A stretch of 64,000 nucleotides of DNA from Minisyncoccota bacterium (GCA_018061145.1 JAGOUR010000003.1:32170-96169); one strand, 5' to 3'. Shown: positions 2,535 to 59,841, counted from the first letter of the stretch. Notes: generated by a model not told the origin, from the sequence alone. Made by a program: numbers and translations.

Positions 2535-3656
2535 ATGGGTAATTCTTTTGGCGACATAATTAAAAATGGACTGCAGTCTCTCTTTGGAAAAGAGAGTAAC
2601 AAGAGCGCCCTGGGTGTAGATATTGGCTCATCTTCTATCAAGCTAGTTCAGATTAAAAAACAAGGAGGTAAAGCAGTGCTCGAGACTTATGGGGCCCTGG
2701 CTCTTGGTCCATATATGCAGACAGATGTGGGTCAGGTGGTAAATGCGCCTGTAGATGTCATCGCTCAGGCTCTGACTGACCTGATGAAAGAAGCAAATGT
2801 CACTACAAATTTTGGCGTAGTTGCTATCCCGTCTTTATCTAGTTTTATGTCTGTAATCTCACTGCCTAGCAGTGTAGACAAGGATAAATTCGCTGAGATT
2901 ATACCAAATGAAGCTCGCAAATATATCCCCATCCCGATGTCTGAGGTGACTCTAGATTGGTGGCCTATACCTAGGCAAGTAGAGTCTTATGAGGAGAATG
3001 AGGGAGGAGTCAGGCCCGAAGTAAAGAACGAGGTTCTTTTGGTTGCTATACACAATGACACTCTCACTAAATACAAAGATGTATTGACCAAGGTTGGCCT
3101 CACTGCAGATTTCTTTGAGCTTGAGATTTTTTCATCTGTACGTTCTACTTTTTCTCACGACATCGCCCCTGTACTATTTATAGATTTTGGTGCCTCAAAA
3201 ACAAAATTATCTATTGTTGAGTACGGTATCATTCGAGTTTTCCATATCGTAAATCGTGGTGGTGCAGATATCACAAAAAATATTTCTCAATCATTATCTA
3301 TACCATTCAAAGACGCAGAACAATTAAAGAGGGAAGTGGGTATCGATCGCAATGCGAATAAAGATGTCGCAGAAGTTGTGTCGCTCTCTGTAGAATATAT
3401 GTTATCTGATGCAAATAATATTGTGCTTGCATTTGAAAAGAAGTATAATAAAAATATCAGTAAAGTTATACTCTCGGGTGGTGGAGCTCTCACAAAAGGC
3501 CTACTCGCTCGTGCTACAGAAAATTTCCGTGCAGAGGTTGTTTACGGTGCCCCATTTTCAAAAACAGAAGCTCCCGCATTTCTTACTCCTGTTCTCGAAG
3601 TTAGTGGGCCAGAGTTTGCTGCGGCTGTCGGTATATCTTTGCGACAGTTGTCATAA
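2535..3656 (+). CDS. pilM: Type IV pilus assembly protein PilM (actin-like ATPase fold)
   Basis: 373 aa; GVDIGSSSIKLVQI N-terminus typical of PilM/FtsA-like proteins; first gene of a pilMNO-pilB block. Confidence 0.85.
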   Translation: MGNSFGDIIKNGLQSLFGKESNKSALGVDIGSSSIKLVQIKKQGGKAVLETYGALALGPYMQTDVGQVVNAPVDVIAQALTDLMKEANVTTNFGVVAIPSLSSFMSVISLPSSVDKDKFAEIIPNEARKYIPIPMSEVTLDWWPIPRQVESYEENEGGVRPEVKNEVLLVAIHNDTLTKYKDVLTKVGLTADFFELEIFSSVRSTFSHDIAPVLFIDFGASKTKLSIVEYGIIRVFHIVNRGGADITKNISQSLSIPFKDAEQLKREVGIDRNANKDVAEVVSLSVEYMLSDANNIVLAFEKKYNKNISKVILSGGGALTKGLLARATENFRAEVVYGAPFSKTEAPAFLTPVLEVSGPEFAAAVGISLRQLS

Positions 3657-44192: not shown

Positions 44193-44687
44193 ATGAAGAT
44201 TCCAGTAGTAAATGAACAAGATGAGATAATAGGGTATAAAGATAGATTAGACAGGAGCCCTGAGGATATTATTCGTATAACTTCTATATGGATAACTGAT
44301 GAAAATGGAGATATTTTAATGCAACAAAGAAAATTTAATAAAAAAAATAATCCGGGTAAATGGAGTGCCGCAGTGGCAGGAACAGTAGAAGAAAGTGAGA
44401 CATATGAGAGTAATGCGTATAAAGAAATGGAGGAAGAAATCGGAGTGAGTGATGTACCTCTTACTATATCAAAAAAATTGTACGGAGAGACAGCTGGAGG
44501 TAAAAGATTTTTGCAAATATATACTGCAAAATTCTCAAAAGATAAAAAATTGACAGCTCAAGAGAATGAAGTGGAACAATTAAAATGGTTCACAAAAGAA
44601 GAACTATTGAGAGAGTTAAAAGAAAACCCAAATGATTTTGTCGGATCTATGCATAGCAAAGAAGTAAAAGAGTTATTTTTATCATGA
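44193..44687 (+). CDS. NUDIX hydrolase
   Basis: Nudix box GTVEESETYESNAYKEMEEEIGV. Confidence 0.6.
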   Translation: MKIPVVNEQDEIIGYKDRLDRSPEDIIRITSIWITDENGDILMQQRKFNKKNNPGKWSAAVAGTVEESETYESNAYKEMEEEIGVSDVPLTISKKLYGETAGGKRFLQIYTAKFSKDKKLTAQENEVEQLKWFTKEELLRELKENPNDFVGSMHSKEVKELFLS

Positions 44688-45112
44688 AAATCAAAATTAA
44701 GAGAATTGAAAAAGAATTACCGTTACCTTTGTATCAGACTACTGGTGCTGTAGCTTTTGATTTGTATTCACGTGTGGATATGGTTGTCTTACCAAAGACA
44801 TTGGTGAGATTGCCGACAAATGTTATCATTGAGACTCCAAAAGGGTACATGCTAGAAATCAAGGATCGTTCAAGTACCTTAAAGAAGAAGGGTCTATTGG
44901 TAAGTACTGGCTACATAGATAATGATTTTTGCGGAGAAGCCGATGAGATACTTTTACAGGTTTACAACATTACAGACAGTGAAGTCGTTGTTGAGAAAGG
45001 GGAGAGATTAGGCCAAGGTGTTTTTGTTAAAATAGAAGTTGCAGAATGGGAGGAAGTTGATATTATGGAAGGGGTAAATCGTGGTGGTTTTGGTACGACC
45101 GGTAATAAATAA
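44684..45112 (+). CDS. dut: dUTP diphosphatase
   Basis: dUTPase motif III GYIDNDFCGE and surrounding beta-strand pattern; 142 aa. Confidence 0.7.
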   Translation: MKIKIKRIEKELPLPLYQTTGAVAFDLYSRVDMVVLPKTLVRLPTNVIIETPKGYMLEIKDRSSTLKKKGLLVSTGYIDNDFCGEADEILLQVYNITDSEVVVEKGERLGQGVFVKIEVAEWEEVDIMEGVNRGGFGTTGNK

Positions 45113-45113
45113 T

Positions 45114-46832
45114 ATGAATATAAAAACAAAAATACAAAATACAATACTAGAAGCTCTAAGGAGCCTCGGCATCGAGGCGACGGTTATTACCCTGGAGCAT
45201 CCCGCAGATTTGAATAATGGCGACTATTCTACAAATGTAGCCATGGCCTATGCAAAGCAAATCGGAATGAATCCAAGAGAGTTGGCAGAAAAAATAGTTG
45301 CAGAAATCTCCGCTAGGCAAGACCTAGCGGAGATAGAAAAAATAGAAGTTGCAGGAGCTGGATTTATAAACTTTTACCTATCACGTGAATTCTTTGTTGG
45401 TAGCGTAAAAGATATTTTGAATAAAAAAGAAAATTGGGGAAAAAATGATTTGTCCAATGGCAAGAAAATAATGGTGGAGTATACAGATCCGAATCCATTC
45501 AAGCCATTTCATATTGGACACCTTATGACCAATGCTATTGGTGAATCTATCGCTCGCGTCGTAGAATTCTCTGGCGCAAAGACTGTCCGTGCAAACTATC
45601 AGGGTGATGTGGGTCTACACGTAGCAAAAGCGATATATGGACTGCAGAATTTTGGTATGCCAGACGAAAATCTTTCTGTATCAGAAAAGGCGCAGTATAT
45701 CGGCGTGCAGTATGCAAAGGGTAGTGATGAATATGAGAATAATCCTGATGCAAAGAGCGCTATAGATGCTATCAACAAAAAGATATACGAAAAGAGTGAT
45801 GAAGAGATAAATAAAATCTACGCATGGGGTAGAGAGGTCACATTGGCTGCCTTTGAAGAGATATACTCACTCCTAGGTACAAAATTTAATCACTATTTCT
45901 TTGAGTCTGTTATGGCTCCAATAGGTGAGAAGATCGTCCGAGCAAATACTCCAAATGTATTCGAGGAATCTGACGGGGCAATAGTATTCAAAGCAGATAA
46001 ATACAATCCAAAACTGCACACTCGAGTATTCATCACTAGTAGTGGTCTGCCACTATACGAGACAAAGGAGATCGGCCTGACAATGACAAAATTCGAAAAG
46101 GAAGAAAATCTCGATCTATCTATAGTGACTACAGCTATCGAGCAGGGTGAGTATATGAAGGTAGTCCAACAGGCTATATCACTCATGCATCCAGATCTTG
46201 AGAAAAAGATGAAGCATATCACTCACGGTATGATGCGCCTCGCCTCTGGCAAGATGTCTTCTCGCAAGGGTAATGTAGTCACAGGTGAATCACTACTTCA
46301 GGACTCTATGGATGTAGTTCGAGAAAAGGTAGCCGAGCGTGAGCTATCTGCCGAAGAGAAAGAGAATATAGCTCAGACTGTAGGAGTAGCTGCACTCAAG
46401 TATTCTATCCTCCGATCATCTCTTGGATCAGATATCATTTATGATTTTGAAAAATCTATTTCTTTTGATGGTGACTCTGGTCCATATCTGCAGTACACAG
46501 CAGTACGCGCAAATGGTATCCACAAGAAAGCCGAGGGCGAGGGTATTTGCGTAGCGTATACAGACATACCATCTGATATCACAGTACTGGAGAAAACTCT
46601 ATACAGATTCCCAGAGGTAGTAGCTCATGCATATGAACAACTAGAACCTCATCATATCGCTACATATCTGACCGAGCTCGCATCTGCATTCAACTCTTTC
46701 TATGGAAATACAATGATAGTGAACAAGAATGATCCATATGCACCGTATCGTGTGGCACTGGTATCCGCATTCCATACTACAATGCAAAACGGCCTTTACC
46801 TCCTAGGTATCAAAACTCCAGAGAAGATGTAA
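45114..46832 (+). CDS. argS: Arginine--tRNA ligase; start at the internal ATG 45114
   Basis: N-terminal Add-1 domain, PNPFKPFHIGH (HIGH) motif, C-terminal DALR anticodon-binding domain ending LGIKTPEKM. Confidence 0.9.
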   Translation: MNIKTKIQNTILEALRSLGIEATVITLEHPADLNNGDYSTNVAMAYAKQIGMNPRELAEKIVAEISARQDLAEIEKIEVAGAGFINFYLSREFFVGSVKDILNKKENWGKNDLSNGKKIMVEYTDPNPFKPFHIGHLMTNAIGESIARVVEFSGAKTVRANYQGDVGLHVAKAIYGLQNFGMPDENLSVSEKAQYIGVQYAKGSDEYENNPDAKSAIDAINKKIYEKSDEEINKIYAWGREVTLAAFEEIYSLLGTKFNHYFFESVMAPIGEKIVRANTPNVFEESDGAIVFKADKYNPKLHTRVFITSSGLPLYETKEIGLTMTKFEKEENLDLSIVTTAIEQGEYMKVVQQAISLMHPDLEKKMKHITHGMMRLASGKMSSRKGNVVTGESLLQDSMDVVREKVAERELSAEEKENIAQTVGVAALKYSILRSSLGSDIIYDFEKSISFDGDSGPYLQYTAVRANGIHKKAEGEGICVAYTDIPSDITVLEKTLYRFPEVVAHAYEQLEPHHIATYLTELASAFNSFYGNTMIVNKNDPYAPYRVALVSAFHTTMQNGLYLLGIKTPEKM

Positions 46833-46837
46833 AAAAT

Positions 46838-47341
46838 ATGAAATTTAAAATTATTACATTACCAAAAGAAAGATGGCAAGAATACAAAGAACTTCGCCTT
46901 CTTGCTGTTTCGTCTGAACCGGTAGCTTTTTGGCCTACAGAAACTGAAGAGAAAGAAAGAACAATAGAGGGGTGGACTATGTATCTTGATAAAAATTCAC
47001 CACAAACAATGTTTTTTGCTGAATGTAACAATGAACTTGTTGGGATGATTAGATTGGCAATAAATAAAGAAGAAAAAGTAAAGCATAATGCGTGGATTTA
47101 CTCCTTTTTTGTTAAGTCAGAAGCTCGTGGTAGTGGTATAGGAAAAAGTTTATTAACTCAGGCAATAAATTTTTTGAAAGAAAAAAATGTTGAAAATATT
47201 TGTTTGAATGTTGCTGTTACTCAGAAAGGTGCTATTAAACTATATAAAAGTTTTGGATTTAAAAAGATTGGAAAATACAAAAATCTAGTAAAGTATAATG
47301 GAAAATATTACGATGAAGATATTATGTGTCTAAGCCTTTAA
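46838..47341 (+). CDS. GNAT-family N-acetyltransferase
   Basis: Acetyl-CoA binding motif A RGSGIGKSLL. Confidence 0.8.
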   Translation: MKFKIITLPKERWQEYKELRLLAVSSEPVAFWPTETEEKERTIEGWTMYLDKNSPQTMFFAECNNELVGMIRLAINKEEKVKHNAWIYSFFVKSEARGSGIGKSLLTQAINFLKEKNVENICLNVAVTQKGAIKLYKSFGFKKIGKYKNLVKYNGKYYDEDIMCLSL

Positions 47342-47685: not shown

Positions 47686-47711
47686 TGTTTTATGGTTATT
47701 CTGTATATACA

Positions 47712-47866
47712 GATGTTGAAGGGGCTATCACCCTGGAGTCTTGGGAAGAAATCCTCTGAAAAAGGACGTAGAACCCAGTAAATGAGAAGTAAGCAAGGTG
47801 GTACCGCGGTAAAAAATCGCCCTTGGAATGCAATCGTAGGATTGTTATTCAAGGGCGATTTTTCAT
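47712..47866 (+). promoter_or_regulatory. T-box riboswitch leader for ileS (short Stem-I type, ATC specifier candidate), with T-box sequence AAGGTGGTACCGCGG and an overlapping terminator / antiterminator
   Basis: T-box consensus at 47790-47808; terminator stem ATCGCCCTTG...CAAGGGCGAT plus T-run at 47812-47866; candidate specifier hairpin GGGG-CTATCA-CCC at 47721-47733 presenting the Ile codon AUC. Confidence 0.75.
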
Positions 47867-47881
47867 TTATTAGTTAAAAAT

Positions 47882-50800
47882 ATGATCATGGAAGAAAAAA
47901 ATACAAAATCACAAAATGCAGAGCGTGAGGAAAAGATACTATCGTTTTGGAAAGAGAATGATACTTTTAAAAAGAGTATAGAAAAGGAGGCCCCAAAAGG
48001 GAAGTACGTCTTCTACGATGGGCCACCTTTTGCTACAGGACTACCACACTATGGCCATATTCTAGGATCTACTGCAAAAGATGTCGTAGGTAGATATCAG
48101 ACTATGCGCGGTTACTCTGTACCTCGTAGATGGGGTTGGGACTGTCATGGTCTACCGATAGAGAATATCGTAGAAAAAGACCTGGGTATCTCTGGTAAAA
48201 AAGCTATCGAGGAATACGGCATAGAGAAGTTCTCTGAGCATGCTCGTAGCAAGGTATTGACCTATGTATCAGAATGGAAAAAGACTGTCGACCGCATGGG
48301 GCGATGGGTGGATTTCGATAATTCATACAAGACTATGGATAATAGTTTTATCGAGAGTGTCTGGTGGGCCCTGGGTGAGCTGAATAACAAGGGACTCCTA
48401 TACGAAGGTGTGCGAGTACTCGCATACTGTTCACGATGTGAGACTCCGATTGCAAACTCGGAGATTGCCATGGACAACAGCTACAAAGATATAAATGATA
48501 TTTCTGTATATGTAAAATTTAGATTAACTCCTACGCAGAAAATGCACCCTCTCTTTAACGCGAGTACGCTAACCCGTTCGGATGCATTTTCTGCTCCGGA
48601 AATATTCCTTTTGGCTTGGACTACTACTCCATGGACGCTACCGGGTAATACTGCGATAGCGATAAATAAAGATTTGCAGTATGTATATGTAAAAAACAAT
48701 GTTCCAGATAAAGATGAGACATTCATAATCGCAAAAGATTTATTTGAAAATCTAAAAACAAAATTCACAGATCCAGAAATCATAAAAGAAGTTTCTGGTA
48801 ATGAATTAGTGGGATTATCATACGAACCGGTTTTTGATTATTATAAAAATGCAGATATGCCAAATAAAGAAAATATTTGGAAAGTTTGGCATGCGGATTT
48901 TATAACAGCAGATGCAGGTACTGGTATCGCTCACGAAGCTCCGGCTTTTGGTGAGGATGATATGAATCTAGCAAAGGAAAACAATATTCCATTTATCCGC
49001 CACGTAGAACCAAACGGAGTATTTTCTGCAGAAGTGACTGATTTTGCTGGTCAATATGTAAAACCAAAAAGTGAAGATGAAAAAATAAGATTTCAAGCTG
49101 ATATAAATATCATAAAATATTTGCAAGAGAGTGGGGCGTATTTTGATAAAGAAAAAATAAAGCACTCATATCCACACTGCTACCGATGTGATACACCACT
49201 ACTGTACTACGCACTACCTTCATGGTTTGTGAATATTCAAAAAGTAAAAGCAGATCTCCTAGAAAAAGCTGAATCAATGAACTGGGTCCCAGCACACTTA
49301 AAAGATGGAAGATTCCATCATACAATGGAAAATGCACCGGATTGGACTATCTCTCGCAATAGATATTGGGCCAGTCCTTTGCCTATCTGGAAATCAGAGA
49401 GCGGGCAGATGATGTTCACTAGCTCTGTTGATGATCTAAAATCAAAAGTTAAAAAATCTGGCAACAAATACTTTGTAATGCGTCATGGGGAGTCAACTCA
49501 CAATACAGATGGTGTATGTAGTTCTGTTGCGGATTACCCCCATCACCTAACAGAAAAGGGTAAAGAAGTAGTTTCTGAAAATGCATCTATTTTGAAATCA
49601 GAGAATATATCGATGATATATTGTTCACCTTTTATTAGAACAAAGGAGACTGCAGAGATAGTTGCAGATTTAATTGGTTTTGATAAAAGTAAAATTATCT
49701 ATGATGATAGAATTACTGAATATAAATTTGGTGATTTTAATGCTAAGTTATTTAGTGATTATCTAAAATGGCGCAAAGAAATTGGTGACACTGTAGATCT
49801 ATGTCCTCCAAACGGAGAGAGTGTTGTTGATGCTCGTCGAAGATTTTCTTCATTTTATTATGACATAGATAATATACATAAAAATGAGAATATATTAGTT
49901 ATTACACATGGTATTGGCTTGGAAACCTTAGATGCTGTTAAGAATGTATATAACGATGAAGTCATGTGGAAAAATTGGAAGATGAATTCTGTATTGCCTG
50001 GACATTTTGTTAAGTTTGATTTTTATCCTCTTCCTCACAATGCGAATTACGAACTTGATCTACACCGCCCATATATAGACAGTATCGTCTTGGTGGATGA
50101 AAATGGTACAGAGTACAAGAGAATCCCCGAGGTTATCGACTGCTGGTTTGAATCTGGCTCCATGCCATTTGCTCAGGATCACTATCCATTCGAGAATCCA
50201 GAGTGGAAACAAAATAATTTCCCTGGTGGATTTGTAGCTGAATATATAGCTCAGACTAGAACATGGTTCTACTATACCCATGCTATATCTACTATGCTAT
50301 TTGGAGAGGCTCCATTTAAGAATGTAGTCACTACGGGTACAGTGCTAGCCGAGGACGGTAGCAAGATGAGTAAATCAAAAAACAATTATCCAGATCCATG
50401 GATACTATTTGATAAGTATGGAGTGGATGCTCTACGATTTTATCTGATGTCTTCTACTCTGATGAAGGGTGAAGATGTGAACTTCTCTGAGAAGGGGGTC
50501 CAGGATATCGCAAGCAAGATCGTATCTCGTCTAGAAAATGTAGCTACATTCTACGAGCTCTACAGAGATGTATCTATTGAAAATGGTGAACTTGATTTAG
50601 AAAAAAATACAAATGTACTGGATCAATGGATCCTAGCTCGATTAAGCTCCCTCGTGTCGGAGGTGACTGTATCTATGGATGCATACGATATGGCCGGAGC
50701 TACGAGACCTTTTGAATTGTTTATAGAAGATCTTTCTACTTGGTATCTACGACGCTCTCGTGATCGTCTAAAGGATGGTGACGTGAATGCAAAGAAGACA

Positions 50801-51421
50801 CTATACTACGTACTGAAAACTACAGTTTCTGTATTGGCGCCATTCGCACCATTTATATCAGAGAGTGTATGGCAAAAATTAAAGAATGAAAACGATGCAG
50901 AATCTGTACATCTTTGTGATTGGCCAGCATTCTCTTATGAAAATTCTGATGTTGTAGGTATGATGCAGCAAGTTCGCGATGTAGTCACACTAGGTCTGCA
51001 GTCTCGTCAAAAAGCTGGTGTCCCTGTGCGCCAGCCTCTTGGAAAATTTAGTATACCTATGGAATTCACGTCTTTGTATACAGAGATTATTGAAGATGAA
51101 TTGAATGTAAAAGAAATTGTCTGTGACACTACACTATCTGATGTATTTATGAGTTTTGATATCACATCTGAACTGAAAAAAGAGGGTCAGTATCGTGAAT
51201 TTGTCCGTGCAGTTCAAGACCTACGAAAAAAGACAGGGCTTATGCCTGCTGATGTAGTGACTCTATATGTGCAGTGTGGCGAGATAGAAAAAGATATTGT
51301 AAATACATTTCTCCCTGAATTCCAAAAGACTACAGGATTAAGGGAGGTAGTATGGGGTGATACATCTGGCGATGAAATAAAAATCGGAGATCTAGTATTT
51401 GTAGTAAAGATAGAAAAATAA
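47882..51421 (+). CDS. ileS: Isoleucine--tRNA ligase carrying an inserted histidine-phosphatase (PGAM-like) domain of about 220 aa
   Basis: HYGHILG (HIGH), WTISRNRYWASPLPIW, VIDCWFESGSMPF, GSKMSKSKNN (KMSKS). An RHGESTHN plus ITHG domain lies between the WxSRQRxWG and DVxDxWFxSG motifs. Total 1179 aa. Confidence 0.95.
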   Translation: MIMEEKNTKSQNAEREEKILSFWKENDTFKKSIEKEAPKGKYVFYDGPPFATGLPHYGHILGSTAKDVVGRYQTMRGYSVPRRWGWDCHGLPIENIVEKDLGISGKKAIEEYGIEKFSEHARSKVLTYVSEWKKTVDRMGRWVDFDNSYKTMDNSFIESVWWALGELNNKGLLYEGVRVLAYCSRCETPIANSEIAMDNSYKDINDISVYVKFRLTPTQKMHPLFNASTLTRSDAFSAPEIFLLAWTTTPWTLPGNTAIAINKDLQYVYVKNNVPDKDETFIIAKDLFENLKTKFTDPEIIKEVSGNELVGLSYEPVFDYYKNADMPNKENIWKVWHADFITADAGTGIAHEAPAFGEDDMNLAKENNIPFIRHVEPNGVFSAEVTDFAGQYVKPKSEDEKIRFQADINIIKYLQESGAYFDKEKIKHSYPHCYRCDTPLLYYALPSWFVNIQKVKADLLEKAESMNWVPAHLKDGRFHHTMENAPDWTISRNRYWASPLPIWKSESGQMMFTSSVDDLKSKVKKSGNKYFVMRHGESTHNTDGVCSSVADYPHHLTEKGKEVVSENASILKSENISMIYCSPFIRTKETAEIVADLIGFDKSKIIYDDRITEYKFGDFNAKLFSDYLKWRKEIGDTVDLCPPNGESVVDARRRFSSFYYDIDNIHKNENILVITHGIGLETLDAVKNVYNDEVMWKNWKMNSVLPGHFVKFDFYPLPHNANYELDLHRPYIDSIVLVDENGTEYKRIPEVIDCWFESGSMPFAQDHYPFENPEWKQNNFPGGFVAEYIAQTRTWFYYTHAISTMLFGEAPFKNVVTTGTVLAEDGSKMSKSKNNYPDPWILFDKYGVDALRFYLMSSTLMKGEDVNFSEKGVQDIASKIVSRLENVATFYELYRDVSIENGELDLEKNTNVLDQWILARLSSLVSEVTVSMDAYDMAGATRPFELFIEDLSTWYLRRSRDRLKDGDVNAKKTLYYVLKTTVSVLAPFAPFISESVWQKLKNENDAESVHLCDWPAFSYENSDVVGMMQQVRDVVTLGLQSRQKAGVPVRQPLGKFSIPMEFTSLYTEIIEDELNVKEIVCDTTLSDVFMSFDITSELKKEGQYREFVRAVQDLRKKTGLMPADVVTLYVQCGEIEKDIVNTFLPEFQKTTGLREVVWGDTSGDEIKIGDLVFVVKIEK

Positions 51422-51482: not shown

Positions 51483-51911
51483 ATGATTACAGAATACTCT
51501 GCGGGATTTATCCTCGTACTACGCAAGGATGGCGAGGAAGATAAATTTCTATTAATAAAACAATTGTCTGGCAATTGGAGTTTTCCAAAGGGGCATCTCG
51601 AAGAAGGGGAAGATTCTAAAACTGCTGCTATTCGAGAACTGCAGGAGGAGACAGGTATTACAGAATTTAAATTTGCTGAACTACCTACTCTAATGGAAGA
51701 ATATGATTTCAATCATAGTGGAGACATACGCCACAAGGTGAATGAATATTTTATCGCATATGCAAAACAAGTCGATGTGAAAATCCAAGAAGGTGAAATA
51801 GTAGACTTTAAGTGGGTGACATACGATCAGGCTTTGGAAACTTTTACATTCGATGATCAAAAGGTGGTTCTGAAAGAAGCTAAAAAATATTTAGATAATT
51901 TAAATAAATAA
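51483..51911 (+). CDS. NUDIX hydrolase (Ap4A-hydrolase-like size)
   Basis: Nudix box GHLEEGEDSKTAAIRELQEETGI. Confidence 0.7.
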   Translation: MITEYSAGFILVLRKDGEEDKFLLIKQLSGNWSFPKGHLEEGEDSKTAAIRELQEETGITEFKFAELPTLMEEYDFNHSGDIRHKVNEYFIAYAKQVDVKIQEGEIVDFKWVTYDQALETFTFDDQKVVLKEAKKYLDNLNK

Positions 51912-54414: not shown

Positions 54415-54543
54415 ATATGGATCCCGTACGAAATGTGTATGTCATGTTTCTACGGATTTCAAATAATAGACTTAGTCGGTATTATTAATGATAAACTATA
54501 ATTAAATACGGAAATGTAAACATTTCCTATTTCGTACGGGATG
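54415..54543. repeat. Long inverted-repeat element (GGATCCCGTACGAAAT ... ATTTCGTACGGGATGG) containing an internal 8-bp-stem hairpin; the right arm embeds the glyQS ATG
   Basis: 14-16-bp arms read directly at 54418-54434 and 54527-54543; internal GGAAATGT-aa-ACATTTCC. Confidence 0.6.
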
Positions 54544-55839
54544 GATAAAAATGACGATAAACTAATGGAGAAGATAATCTCCCTCTGCAAGCGCCGAGGC
54601 TTTATTTACCAAGGGTCCGAGATCTACGGGGGTCTGGCTGGTACATTTGATTATGGCCCATTGGGTGTGATGCTGAAGAATAATATCAAGGATTCTTGGC
54701 GTAAAAAATTCGTGTCATCTAGACACGATATGTATGAAGTAGATGCTGCTATATTGATGAACTCTGCTGTCTGGCAAGCGTCTGGACACGTAGATACTTT
54801 TACTGCTCCACTAGTAGAGTGTACAAAATGTAAAAAAAGATTACGCGAAGATAAATTAAAAGAGAAGGGTAAGTGCGATGATTGTGGTTCACCTGTAGGT
54901 GAGGCTCGTCAGTTTAATGAAATGTTTGCTACAAAAATAGGGGCAGCGGAAGACACTGCTTCTACTGTATATCTACGCCCCGAAACAGCTCAAGGTATAT
55001 TTGTGAACTTTAAAAATATCGTAGATTCGTTCCACCCAAAGCTTCCATTTGGTATGGCTCAGATTGGTAAAGCTTTCCGTAATGAGATCACCCCCCGTGA
55101 TTTTATCTTCCGTGTGCGTGAGATAGAGCAGATGGAAATTGAATATTTTGTACGACCTGATGATTGGGAAAAATATTTTACTTTCTTTAAAGAGGAAATG
55201 ATCGAGTGGATGGAAGGTGTGGGTATTGATATGAGCAAGGTTCATGAAATAGAAGTGGGGGCAGAAGACCGGGCTTTTTATTCTAGTAGAACAATAGATT
55301 TTGAATTTAATTTTCCATTTGGACAAAATGAGCTTTATGGTCTTGCATATAGAACAGATTATGATTTAGGTAAGCATAATCTTTCATATCAAGACGAGGA
55401 GACTGCTCAAAAATTCATACCTCATGTTATCGAACCATCTTTTGGTGTAGATCGTACAGTGTTAGCACTGTTGACCTCTGCATACATGGAAGATGACAAA
55501 GATGGGGAAGTACGTAGTTATCTAAAATTTGAACCGCATATGGCACCTGTCGTATGTGCAGTGTCGCCACTATTGAAGAACAAGCCAGAACTCATAGAAA
55601 AAGCTCGTATAGTATACGGCACACTCAAGAATGAATTTGGTCGCGTGATGTGGGATGACAATGGAAATATAGGTAAGAGATACAGAAGACAAGATGAGAT
55701 AGGTACACCATGGTGTATAGTCATCGACTTTGATACTCTGACTGATGATACTGTGACTATCCGAGATCGTGATACTGGCACTCAAGAACGTATTGCTATC
55801 ATAGAACTAGTGGATCATATAAAAGAAAAATTGGGATAA
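54541..55839 (+). CDS. glyQS: Glycine--tRNA ligase, alpha2 homodimeric (archaeal/eukaryote-like) type
   Basis: YGGLAGTFDYGPLGV, class-II motifs, C-terminal anticodon-binding domain; 432 aa; terminator at about 55842-55875. Confidence 0.9.
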   Translation: MDKNDDKLMEKIISLCKRRGFIYQGSEIYGGLAGTFDYGPLGVMLKNNIKDSWRKKFVSSRHDMYEVDAAILMNSAVWQASGHVDTFTAPLVECTKCKKRLREDKLKEKGKCDDCGSPVGEARQFNEMFATKIGAAEDTASTVYLRPETAQGIFVNFKNIVDSFHPKLPFGMAQIGKAFRNEITPRDFIFRVREIEQMEIEYFVRPDDWEKYFTFFKEEMIEWMEGVGIDMSKVHEIEVGAEDRAFYSSRTIDFEFNFPFGQNELYGLAYRTDYDLGKHNLSYQDEETAQKFIPHVIEPSFGVDRTVLALLTSAYMEDDKDGEVRSYLKFEPHMAPVVCAVSPLLKNKPELIEKARIVYGTLKNEFGRVMWDDNGNIGKRYRRQDEIGTPWCIVIDFDTLTDDTVTIRDRDTGTQERIAIIELVDHIKEKLG

Positions 55840-58380: not shown

Positions 58381-59841
58381 ATGAACAAAAAACCTTTTTA
58401 CCTGACAACAACATTGCCATACGTAAATGCAAATCTCCATATGGGGCATGCATTGGAATTTGTGCGTGCAGATGCGATAGTGCGATACAAAAAGCTCAAT
58501 GATTTTGATGTGTATTTCAATACTGGCACAGACGAGCATGGTATGAAGATTTATGAAAAGGCGCAATCACAAAACCTGACTGCTCAAGAATTTGTCGATC
58601 AGAGTTTCCAAAATTTTCGTGAGTCTGTAAATATCTTTGGATTGTCCGATGATATACATTTTATCCGTACTACTGACAAGAGGCATGAGAAGATTGCACA
58701 AAGTTTCTGGATGAAGTGCAAAGACAATGGATATATCTATAAGAAAAATTACCAGACAAAGTACTGCGTAGGCTGTGAATCTGAAAAATCAGACAGTGAA
58801 CTTGTAAATGGTGAGTGCCCTGATCATCCTGGTCGCGCACTCGAAGTAATAGAAGAAGAAAATTACTTCTTCAAATATTCTGCTTTTACAGAAAAGCTGA
58901 CAGAATTTTATAATTCAAATCCAAATTTTGTCGTGCCAGATTTCCGCTACAATGAGATCAAAGCCTTCGTGGCAAGAGGTCTACAAGATTTTTCTATTTC
59001 GCGCCTCGCTACCAAGATGCCATGGGGTATACCCGTGCCAGATGACAGTGACCATGTGATGTATGTATGGTTCGATGCACTTACAAACTATATCTCTACC
59101 TTGGCCGACGATGGAGTAGATACACTTGATGCCCTTGTCGCAAGTGATAAATTCCAAAAATACTGGGTGAACGGAACTCCTACTCAATACTGTGGCAAGG
59201 ATAATCTACGTTTTCAATCTGCGATGTGGCAATCAATGCTCATGGCCGCAGGAGTGCCGAATTCAAAGCAGATAGTAATCAACGGATTCATCACAGCAGA
59301 TGGAGGACTGAAGATGTCCAAGACATTGGGTAATGTTGTTGATCCTCAAGATATAGTGGCTGAATATGGTACAGATGCATTACGATACTTCCTACTTCGC
59401 GAAGTGTCTTCATTTGAAGATTCACCATTCACTATCGAGCGTTTTAAAGATTCATACAACAGTGGCCTTGCGAATGGATTGGGGAATCTGACTAGTCGTA
59501 TTATGACTATGGCAGAGAAACACTTAGAATCTCCTGTGGAATTTGTTGAATATCCTGGTGATCAGTCTGAATATTGGGATAAGTATGAACTAAAAAATGT
59601 TATGGATTTAACTTGGAGTTTTATTGGGGACCTCGATGAATATATCCAAAAAGAACAACCTTTTAAGGTTATTAAAGTAGACGAGCAAGCTGGAAAAGAA
59701 CATATAAAAATATTAGTCGAAAAATTGTCTATAATTGCGCAAAGATTGATTCCTGTACTACCAGATACGGCAGAAAAAATAATTACTTTAATCAAAGCAA
59801 ATAAAAAGCCAGAAAATCCGCTGTTTTTGAGGAAGGATTAA
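58381..59841 (+). CDS. metG: Methionine--tRNA ligase
   Basis: PYVNANLHMGH (HIGH-type), zinc-knuckle Cys pairs, KMSKTLGN (KMSKS). Confidence 0.95.
   Translation: MNKKPFYLTTTLPYVNANLHMGHALEFVRADAIVRYKKLNDFDVYFNTGTDEHGMKIYEKAQSQNLTAQEFVDQSFQNFRESVNIFGLSDDIHFIRTTDKRHEKIAQSFWMKCKDNGYIYKKNYQTKYCVGCESEKSDSELVNGECPDHPGRALEVIEEENYFFKYSAFTEKLTEFYNSNPNFVVPDFRYNEIKAFVARGLQDFSISRLATKMPWGIPVPDDSDHVMYVWFDALTNYISTLADDGVDTLDALVASDKFQKYWVNGTPTQYCGKDNLRFQSAMWQSMLMAAGVPNSKQIVINGFITADGGLKMSKTLGNVVDPQDIVAEYGTDALRYFLLREVSSFEDSPFTIERFKDSYNSGLANGLGNLTSRIMTMAEKHLESPVEFVEYPGDQSEYWDKYELKNVMDLTWSFIGDLDEYIQKEQPFKVIKVDEQAGKEHIKILVEKLSIIAQRLIPVLPDTAEKIITLIKANKKPENPLFLRKD

Follow-up and report, generated by a model that had tools for sequence, protein, structure and literature searches.

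A histidine-phosphatase domain inserted in the CP3 loop of a Minisyncoccota isoleucyl-tRNA synthetase and replaced as a cassette between close relatives

The isoleucyl-tRNA synthetase gene and its inserted phosphatase domain

In a 64,000-nucleotide stretch of a Minisyncoccota genome (GCA_018061145.1, JAGOUR010000003.1:32170-96169; hereafter the window), an uninterrupted single open reading frame (47882..51421, +) was identified by profiles, motifs and PDB alignment as ileS, encoding a type-2 (eukaryote-like) isoleucyl-tRNA synthetase (IleRS) of 1179 amino acids (aa) that carries a histidine-phosphatase domain in its interior. The whole protein scored 865 bits against the NCBIfam model TIGR00392 (ileS; cut-off 621.4). 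Pfam placed tRNA-synt_1 in two stretches (E 1.8e-126) with His_Phos_1 between them, and Anticodon_1 (anticodon-binding domain) and DUF5915 in the C-terminal part. The class I signatures HYGH (aa 56-59) and KMSKS (aa 828-832) and the CP1 editing-domain motifs WTTTPWTLPGN and GTGIAHEAPAFGEDD were all present in the translation. IleRS2 and yeast IleRS were the best PDB matches of the whole protein in phmmer searches, and the full-length AlphaFold2 (AF2) model had a mean predicted local distance difference test (pLDDT) score of 82.7. A preliminary description of this DNA, made from the sequence alone, had proposed an IleS of 1179 aa with an internal histidine-phosphatase domain, and the reading frame and the TIGR00392 and PF00300 (His_Phos_1) matches confirmed this. 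A motif map located the motifs that it quoted at the places it gave, both those of the phosphatase (FVMRHGESTHN, aa 531-541; LVITHGIGL, aa 672-680) and those flanking it (WTISRNRYWASPLPIW, aa 488-503; VIDCWFESGSMPF, aa 751-763), and the interval it had assigned to the domain (49420-50085, aa 514-735) encloses the insert as delimited here.

The N-terminal part of the synthetase (aa 1-519; 47882..49438, +) comprises the first Rossmann half, the CP core, the CP1 editing domain, CP2, the CP2-3 linker (WTISRNRYW) and the first half of CP3. The C-terminal part (aa 719-1179; 50036..51421, +) comprises the second half of CP3 (ELDLHRPYID), the second Rossmann half with KMSKS, the anticodon-binding domain and a C-terminal junction/DUF5915 region. 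In a phmmer search against all PDB chains, query residues 3-519 paired with residues 1-474 of the IleRS2 structure 8c8v and query residues 719-1103 with residues 480-870, the C-terminal part aligning to 480-870 and beyond. Since the 8c8v alignment resumed at 480 after 474, approximately 199 aa (520-718) replace a 5-residue loop of IleRS2. In yeast IleRS (ScIleRS), the CP3 subdomain spans residues 459-526, and the CP2-3 linker (ARDWNVSRNRYWG) lines the pocket for the tRNA 3' end (A76) and reveromycin A (PMC7955072). The window motif WTISRNRYW is the counterpart of this linker. The insert begins at a position equivalent to about yeast residue 488, which is within CP3 and approximately 25 residues past the linker.

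Intact HIGH-type and KMSKS motifs and the conserved synteny dUTPase-ArgS-IleS-RecO showed that the gene is the ordinary IleRS of its clade. Aminoacylation of tRNAIle by the window protein can be inferred from orthology, from this synteny and from a ratio of non-synonymous to synonymous substitution rates (dN/dS, omega) of 0.04-0.08. The protein remained far below the cut-offs of the model for IleS with a GNAT domain (NF040702, 343 bits against 1999) and of those for the mupirocin-resistance IleRS MupA and MupB (NF000257 and NF000258, 666 and 692 against 1900). The other synthetases in the window, an ArgRS of 583 aa (45081-46832), a class II HGTP-type enzyme of 432 aa (54541-55839) and a MetRS of 486 aa (58381-59841), were of ordinary length and without an extra domain; within the window, the insertion is specific to IleRS.

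The inserted His_Phos_1 (PhoE/PspA-like) domain (aa 520-718; 49439..50035, +), identified with Pfam, AF2, Foldseek and phmmer, includes the linkers KKSGNKYF on the N side and F-x-PLPHN on the C side, of which KKSGN-Y-F and PLPHN are highly conserved. PF00300 matched at aa 531-680 with an E-value of 2.5e-25 and 89.7 bits (gathering threshold 21.7). In the full-length AF2 model the insert formed a compact alpha/beta unit with pLDDT 90-96, and when folded alone it reached a pLDDT of 96.1 and a predicted template-modelling score (pTM) of 0.92. These results confirmed the presence of a discrete histidine-phosphatase domain, inserted in frame in an otherwise normal IleRS.

In phmmer searches against the PDB, the closest solved relatives of the insert by sequence were PhoE/YhfR (1ebb/1h2e, E 6e-11), phosphoglycerate mutase (PGM) of S. 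pombe, PspA, Shb17, CobC and TIGAR. Its fold neighbours in Foldseek were PspA, PGM, PhoE, CobC, Rv2419c and TIGAR, with template-modelling (TM) scores of ~0.7, and the top 50 Foldseek PDB matches were all His_Phos branch-1 enzymes (TM 0.6-0.75). Equivalog scores were 64.2, 39 and 34.5 bits for the cofactor-dependent PGM (dPGM) models NF038349, NF002339 and PRK01112, against cut-offs of 225, 316 and 320, respectively; 67.1 against 162.9 for CobC (TIGR03162); and 55 against 350 for PspA (NF045917). With these scores, and that for GpmB, far under the cut-offs, assignment as a true dPGM, CobC or PspA orthologue was rejected, and no substrate can be transferred from the known enzymes. The label 'phosphoglycerate-mutase-like' thus holds for the fold only.

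Residue conservation was analyzed in 72 orthologous inserts (36-72% identity) and in an alignment of 120 sequences. R534, H535, G536, R586 and H676 were invariant in all 72. The codons for R534 and H535 (49481..49486, +) encode the RHG motif with the predicted phospho-accepting nucleophile H535, and this motif was also invariant in the 120-sequence alignment. The codon for R586 (49637..49639, +) lies in the motif SPFIRTKETA and specifies the second phosphate-binding arginine, that for E613 (49718..49720, +) the predicted general acid (Glu in 71 of the 72 inserts, Asp in one), and that for H676 (49907..49909, +) the second catalytic histidine, in the motif ITHG. The structural motifs LT..G, SP..R..T and GE....R were conserved in the orthologous inserts as well. 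R534, H535, R586, E613 and H676 together make up the complete catalytic core of a branch-1 histidine phosphatase.

Selection on the insert was estimated with the Nei-Gojobori method for loci with available DNA, using pairs that share one insert allele. In such pairs, omega was 0.02-0.06 for the insert and 0.04-0.08 for the synthetase body, which indicates that the domain is as constrained as the essential enzyme around it. A complete catalytic core under strong purifying selection suggests that the insert is most likely an active phosphomonoesterase, acting via a phospho-His535 intermediate. The inserts were mostly acidic (median isoelectric point 5.7 and net charge -5 in 171 distinct inserts).

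An intein was rejected as an alternative, as no HINT or intein Pfam match and no junction nucleophiles were found and the fold is that of His_Phos. The start of the insert (...KVKKSGNKY) has no N-terminal Cys or Ser. At the other junction, a conserved P-H-N occurs at aa 718-720; in orthologues it precedes A, K, D, E, R or G, and neither Cys nor Ser nor Thr ever occupies this next position. Since a following nucleophile is lacking and H719 aligns with IleRS2 itself, this H-N is not an intein end. The preliminary description was therefore right that the insertion is a domain and not an intein, as borne out by the profile match, the discrete, confidently predicted fold and the branch-1 neighbours; its supporting argument that there is no HN end did not hold, while that from the missing Cys/Ser start did. 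Two outcomes that it had named as fatal, absence of a significant His_Phos profile match and a plain lineage-specific insertion without RHG/HG catalytic residues, were not encountered, and the discrete folded unit that it had asked structure prediction to look for was obtained.

Distribution and replacement of the domain

A scan of one genome per GTDB species, in which only full inserts with flanks were counted, found the same insertion in the IleS of at least 142 species genomes (Paceibacteria/Nomurabacteria), which answered the earlier call for a survey of orthologues. The labels of these genomes were Nomurabacteria, Paceibacterota, Parcubacteria, Zambryskiibacteriota and Taylorbacteria, in addition to a generic 'Saccharibacteria' from one bulk study. 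PF00300 was present in all 120 best full-length homologues, with no loss among them. An exhaustive search of 1.84 billion cluster representatives (50% identity) by HMMER, with the insert as query, yielded 7189 matches, 57 of them at E <=1e-30. Among the best 150, 139 were newly returned, comprising 107 IleS-like proteins, 31 with His_Phos only (fragments or free-standing proteins of ~200 aa) and one ValRS-like protein. Public databases (UniRef) have contained such IleS proteins from the time of the GW2011 Parcubacteria genomes (P0347), under no more specific names than 'class I tRNA ligase family protein' or 'isoleucyl-tRNA synthetase'.

Several relatives showed other architectures. Pfam scans and motif maps revealed two or three His_Phos domains in the IleS proteins P0219, P0223, P0241, P0049 and P0051, and a ValRS-like protein of 1161 aa (P0137; best PDB match 1gax) contained four. 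An IleS of 1395 aa (P0201) combined His_Phos with a Walker-A P-loop kinase (AAA_33/AAA_18/zeta-like) after WFESGSMPYA, and a 1066-aa IleS fragment (P0180) combined His_Phos and GNAT with an in-frame IS200-like Y1_Tnp (PF01797, E 7e-12) at aa 340-461, in the editing region. At least four insertion points were distinguished. Two are in CP3, one before DLHRP (the site used in the window) and one behind the second Cys pair (P0219); the others directly follow WFESGSMPF..HYPF or lie after KMSKS. Copies within one protein were 24-52% identical to each other, a divergence equal to that of the alleles. In several long contigs the ileS frame was broken inside the insert, with an in-frame TAG right after RHGES in L031 (~3440-3460) and frameshifted ileS tails in the fragments P0029, P0033, P0035 and P0040 (contigs of 76-733 kb). 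These breaks could be assembly errors caused by cassette polymorphism, or truly split or pseudogenised genes.

Comparison of the window with the closest genome (L015, JBAYVZ010000002.1), in which ArgS, RecO and a DUF11-like protein were 95, 99 and 93% identical to their window counterparts, showed a sharply bounded replacement within the insert. The IleRS bodies were 97% identical overall and 93-100% identical in most 30-residue blocks, whereas identity fell to 20-40% by block over aa ~541-720, leaving the two cassettes about 27-30% identical. At the DNA level, blastn aligned 47887-48526, 48611-49505 and 50015-51421 at 93-96% and gave no alignment over 49506-50014, with sharp breakpoints at 49505/49506 and 50014/50015. 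The replaceable cassette core (aa about 542-711; 49506..50014, +), defined by this blastn comparison together with profiles of protein identity, synonymous divergence (dS) and GC content, has a GC content of ~0.30 against ~0.40 in its flanks. dS was 2.2 in the cassette and 0.21 in the body. With synonymous sites saturated too and breakpoints this sharp, fast evolution in place was rejected; the dS values indicate replacement by an old allele.

The same pattern was found among the 120 best full-length homologues. In pairs with a body identity of at least 90%, insert identity was either 94-99% or 28-46%, but for two pairs near 0.8. Single-linkage clustering at 60% divided the 120 sequences into 47 cassette classes, with up to four classes inside one group of seven near-identical bodies and with cassette length held at 165-181 aa. 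In 33 of the 120 proteins, the cassette was less than 50% identical to that of the closest relative by body (body identity at least 85%). Recent cassette transfer between distant bodies was not seen in these 120 sequences, in which insert identity exceeded body identity by at most 0.085; since no pair had a cassette much closer than its body, the donors are not in the sample. A second His_Phos that could represent a donor copy was absent from the 64-kb window and from the flanks (<=5 kb each side) of 80 related loci. These results showed that the domain is evolutionarily autonomous, its core being swapped as a cassette between near-identical IleRS bodies; exchange without compensating change in the body also indicates structural autonomy.

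A second hypervariable patch, recognized from the identity profile, blastn and pLDDT, lies at the entry of the CP1 editing domain (aa ~216-243; 48527..48610, +). It measures ~31 aa in the window protein and ~11 aa in close relatives (P0262, L015), and it was predicted to be disordered (pLDDT <50 at aa 226-236). Coupling between this patch and the cassette was rejected, as all four combinations occur; the independent exchange of the two segments speaks against co-adaptation of the body to its cassette.

Neighbourhood of ileS

Across the clade, gene order followed the conserved pattern dUTPase-ArgS-[variable]-IleS-[variable]-RecO-DUF11-like. In the window, the slot between argS and ileS holds a gene for a free-standing GNAT acetyltransferase (46838-47341, +; GC 0.25-0.33) and that just after ileS a NUDIX hydrolase gene (51483-51911, +). 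These genes occurred in one and nine of the 80 related loci, respectively, and were therefore rejected as functional partners and regarded as variable island content. In relatives, the slots beside ileS contained alpha/beta serine hydrolase, HAD, NUDIX, MBL-fold, PaaX-like and EamA genes. Relative to the window, L015 lacks the GNAT island and has an extra 1.2 kb after ileS. The dUTPases of the window (44684-45112) and L015 (1142-1543) were 31% identical as proteins, and their DNA was unaligned over 44717-45039, in genomes otherwise about 90-95% identical; dUTPase is thus another small nucleotide-sanitising enzyme that has been replaced by a divergent homologue.

PADLOC gave a weak match of the NUDIX protein to the candidate family PDC-S07 and a match of the GNAT protein to PDC-M11A, while none of the defence models in PADLOC-DB v2 matched the insert (0 families). 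The sole PHROGs match of the insert was to phrog_12933, a family of unknown function. Searches for a phage origin returned only generic matches of 24-31% identity from a phage GenBank collection and none from IMG/VR, and no mobility gene, intein (HINT) feature or flanking repeat was found at the insert. The closest free-standing relative of the insert among those examined (P0056, in L081) had an uninformative context, a small-gene island beside an HTH-Panacea antitoxin pair. There, an HTH + SocA/Panacea antitoxin-type gene overlaps a 131-aa gene ~200 bp upstream of P0056 (L081 4741-5803), and the two may form a toxin-antitoxin pair.

Upstream of ileS, a short T-box-like leader (47707-47827, +), in which stem I is drastically reduced and the canonical T-box sequence GGUGGUACCGCG is present, scored 34.2 bits (E 3.5e-6; Rfam gathering threshold 93); the corresponding scores were 68.4 in L036 (3461-3594) and 35.6 in L015 (3318-3448). 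This leader may represent an ultrashort ileS T-box in Patescibacteria. Elsewhere in the window, ARAGORN predicted a tRNA-Ser with the anticodon ACT, which is unusual in bacteria (1582-1667, -), and Rfam confirmed a tRNA at this position.

Proposed function and relation to known systems

We propose that the PhoE/PspA-like domain in the CP3 loop would hydrolyse phosphomonoesters via phospho-His535 and that it would do so in trans, as a tethered phosphatase, on a small phosphorylated compound (nucleotide-like or another metabolite) in a 'house-cleaning' or detoxification role. IleRS would supply guaranteed co-expression and co-localisation, and recurrent replacement by old, divergent alleles would reflect selection that favours a change of specificity or the evasion of an agent directed at the domain. 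The chances that the insert is such a tethered, trans-acting small-substrate phosphatase, with alleles turned over by selection on specificity or escape, appear about evenly balanced. Action in trans on a small compound is most likely because position and orientation of the domain vary, because it is usually acidic and because its fold neighbours are small-molecule phosphatases; a precisely positioned in-cis partner of the aminoacylation site is less likely. Taken with the free swapping of cassettes and the small hydrolases (alpha/beta, HAD, NUDIX, MBL) in the variable islands beside ileS, these points lean mildly against an action on tRNA ends that depends on geometry; the preliminary description had named tRNA ends, nucleotides and metabolites as possible substrates. 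Any conflict would be fought by replacement of whole cassettes, since no excess of non-synonymous change was found within allele lineages.

Several observations weigh against this proposal. The great majority of the nearest relatives of the insert reside in IleRS, and class Ia synthetases have acquired such domains independently more than once. This is not predicted if the synthetase is a mere carrier of expression, and it therefore indicates a genuine functional tie to aminoacylation or tRNA. In sequence, the insertion site lies near the linker of the A76 pocket, and net acidity is weak evidence against RNA substrates. Conserved catalytic residues are no proof of turnover. The absence of a non-synonymous excess within allele lineages means that no arms race is visible as positive selection on point mutations, and the replacement of further small segments near ileS between the window and L015 (dUTPase, GNAT island) suggests that part of the cassette turnover may stem from a high overall rate at which these genomes replace small segments.

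Two other readings connect the domain with synthetases or tRNAs as targets of a conflict. In the first, the IleRS-embedded domains (His_Phos here, GNAT and P-loop kinase elsewhere, the tandem arrays and the ValRS-like case) would be target-tethered countermeasures in an ongoing conflict aimed at class Ia synthetases or their tRNAs, whose agents may be toxins that (pyro)phosphorylate tRNA ends, phosphorylated adenylate-mimic antibiotics or phage factors. We consider this possible but doubtful. If true, cassette replacement among near-identical hosts would be the footprint of an arms race, IleRS a 'self-defending drug target' in an essential translation enzyme, and the cassette the first flexible-genome islet in frame within a housekeeping gene. 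In the second, the phosphatase would heal tRNA ends, stripping a 3'-phosphate, a 2',3'-derived phosphate or a toxin-added 3'-pyrophosphate from the CCA of bound tRNAIle and so enabling charging; by extension, the GNAT and P-loop kinase inserts would be further modules acting on tRNA ends or aminoacyl-tRNA, and allele turnover the result of conflict with tRNA-targeting toxins. The CP3 site ~25 residues after the A76-pocket CP2-3 linker of ScIleRS speaks for such healing, as do the repeated independent insertion of His_Phos in class Ia synthetases, at distinct IleRS sites and in one ValRS-like protein, and deep allelic replacement, which is typical of conflict loci. So does the combination of His_Phos with an AAA_33/zeta-like P-loop kinase in P0201, a pairing that recalls end-healing kinase-phosphatase enzymes. 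However, a fixed A76 geometry is hard to reconcile with variation in copy number and insertion site (before or after DLHRP, after WFESGSMPF, after KMSKS, in tandem), the cassettes are mostly acidic and swap among identical bodies without compensation, the close structural neighbours are all small-molecule phosphatases, and no PADLOC defence model matched. We know of no RNA 3'-phosphatase of the His_Phos fold, and none was found in the literature on His_Phos in RNA repair. On balance, tRNA-end healing seems rather unlikely.

It is improbable that the domain is a protein phosphatase acting in cis, which would remove an inhibitory phosphorylation from IleRS or a partner, for example one added by a HipA-like toxin kinase that targets synthetases. 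The superfamily does include the protein phosphatases SixA, PGAM5 and Sts-1, HipA-family kinases phosphorylate GltX and TrpS, tethering would provide a high local concentration and the catalytic residues are invariant; but no kinase partner was seen in the window or the 80 related loci, the structural neighbours are metabolite phosphatases and not the protein-phosphatase members, and tandem arrays and rapid allele replacement are left unexplained. An equally improbable origin is a selfish or neutral passenger, a His_Phos segment that would spread by recombination into tolerant loops of large essential genes and persist, without host function, as precise deletion is rare. Several insertion sites and copy numbers, a cassette GC content below that of the host gene, the replacement of nearby small segments and the in-frame Y1_Tnp of P0180, which shows that such genes accept foreign inserts, would fit a passenger. 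A passenger would not, however, keep an active site, and five catalytic residues are kept across the 72 orthologues (E613 in 71). dN/dS within allele lineages (0.02-0.06) equals that of the essential body, cassette length is constant at 165-181 aa, none of the 120 close homologues has lost the domain, and no mobility gene, HINT feature, flanking repeat or viral copy was found. Conservation of the full catalytic core, including nucleophile and general acid, makes a non-catalytic module very improbable, be it a docking platform or a pseudo-enzyme that would sense phosphate or a ligand and modulate IleRS, even though appended domains of eukaryotic synthetases are often non-catalytic and the linkers on both sides are highly conserved; replacement of the remaining surface by ~30% identical versions also argues against a specific docking surface. 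Finally, the deviating GC content of the cassette and its lack of DNA similarity to the closest genome could point to an artefact of assembly or sequencing in which IleS and an unrelated phosphatase gene were joined in a chimeric contig, a danger that the preliminary description had also listed. A chimera, whose probability is negligible, was rejected, as the frame is intact and an independent NCBI assembly (GCA_020047435.1) encodes an identical protein (1177 aa) in the same gene context (ArgS-GNAT-IleS-NUDIX-RecO). The architecture also recurs at this site in the genomes of at least 142 species and in over 120 full-length proteins, which come from many studies.

The preliminary description had regarded the architecture as undescribed, and had not noted the exchange of cassettes or the variants with several sites and copies. 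A full-text search of the literature turned up no account of a synthetase with an embedded phosphatase, and neither a phosphatase nor a GNAT appears in the domain catalogue of AARS Online. The parts themselves, type-2 IleRS and branch-1 His_Phos, are known, as is the addition of accessory domains to synthetases. What is unusual and, as far as found, unreported is the evolutionary behaviour of an in-frame cassette of constant length and deep polymorphism in an essential gene. Aminoacyl-tRNA synthetases are among the most conserved enzymes and have a well-catalogued set of accessory domains. An active domain would mean that a large branch of the Candidate Phyla Radiation translates with a bifunctional IleRS-phosphatase, and tRNA charging would have an unrecognised link with phosphate-ester chemistry, be it nucleotide or metabolite sanitation, tRNA-end repair or inhibitor detoxification. 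The case also illustrates how a domain inside an essential gene can behave in evolution like a flexible genomic island, with old, divergent alleles of one length passing between close relatives under strong purifying selection. Such alleles offer naturally occurring, exchangeable domain grafts to protein engineering and can serve as a marker for recombination at strain level in organisms not yet cultured.

Among known systems, the synthetase body most resembles IleRS2 of Priestia megaterium (PDB 8c8v/8c8u) and yeast IleRS (7d5c, 8wnd), with which it is collinear throughout (phmmer E 1e-211; Foldseek E 3e-73) and shares the signature motifs, the CP1 editing domain, the anticodon-binding domain and the C-terminal junction domain. 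In contrast to these enzymes, it has ~199 extra residues in place of a 5-residue CP3 loop, and the variable patch at aa 216-243 is additional. More distant relatives keep the zinc-knuckle cysteines of CP3 (CxxC...CxC), in the form of a CxxC...CxCGG knuckle that flanks the insert on both sides, whereas the window protein has lost them. The insert itself resembles PhoE/YhfR of Geobacillus stearothermophilus (1ebb, 1h2e) and PspA of Hydrogenobacter thermophilus (4ij5/4ij6), which have the same fold, a length of ~200 aa and the same RHG...R...E...H constellation. PhoE was the best match by sequence (E 6e-11), and the best fold match had an E-value of 6e-15 and a TM score of about 0.72. PhoE and PspA are free-standing, whereas the insert is embedded in another enzyme, and identity is merely 22-24%. 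A CobC/PhoE-like His_Phos is joined to a nucleic-acid enzyme in the bifunctional RNase H/acid phosphatase (Rv2228c-type, NF005567), the phosphatase half of which the insert matched (E 1.6e-16). That protein is an end-to-end fusion with another partner enzyme, whereas the insert of the window is internal and scored 60.6 against a cut-off of 326.

With inteins, the insert shares the occurrence of an in-frame foreign segment at a conserved site in an essential gene and its horizontal replacement, but it is a folded enzyme that stays in the mature protein, and a homing endonuclease is absent. Allelic cassette loci such as restriction-specificity and immunity cassettes likewise have divergent, constant-length alleles between conserved flanks that are exchanged among close relatives, and, as in such loci, synonymous divergence is saturated inside the window cassette and low outside. 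Unlike these loci, the cassette is internal to a housekeeping enzyme and has no known partner toxin or target; the resemblance is one of evolutionary pattern only. A precedent for an accessory enzyme domain embedded in IleRS is provided by ileS_w_GNAT (NF040702), an NCBIfam exception model. The IleS of the window differs from it in lacking a GNAT domain and has a free-standing GNAT gene upstream instead, whose product resembles the inserted GNAT only in a generic way (26% identity). Relatives of the window protein carry, besides His_Phos, a GNAT (P0180) or a P-loop kinase (P0201) after WFESGSMPF.

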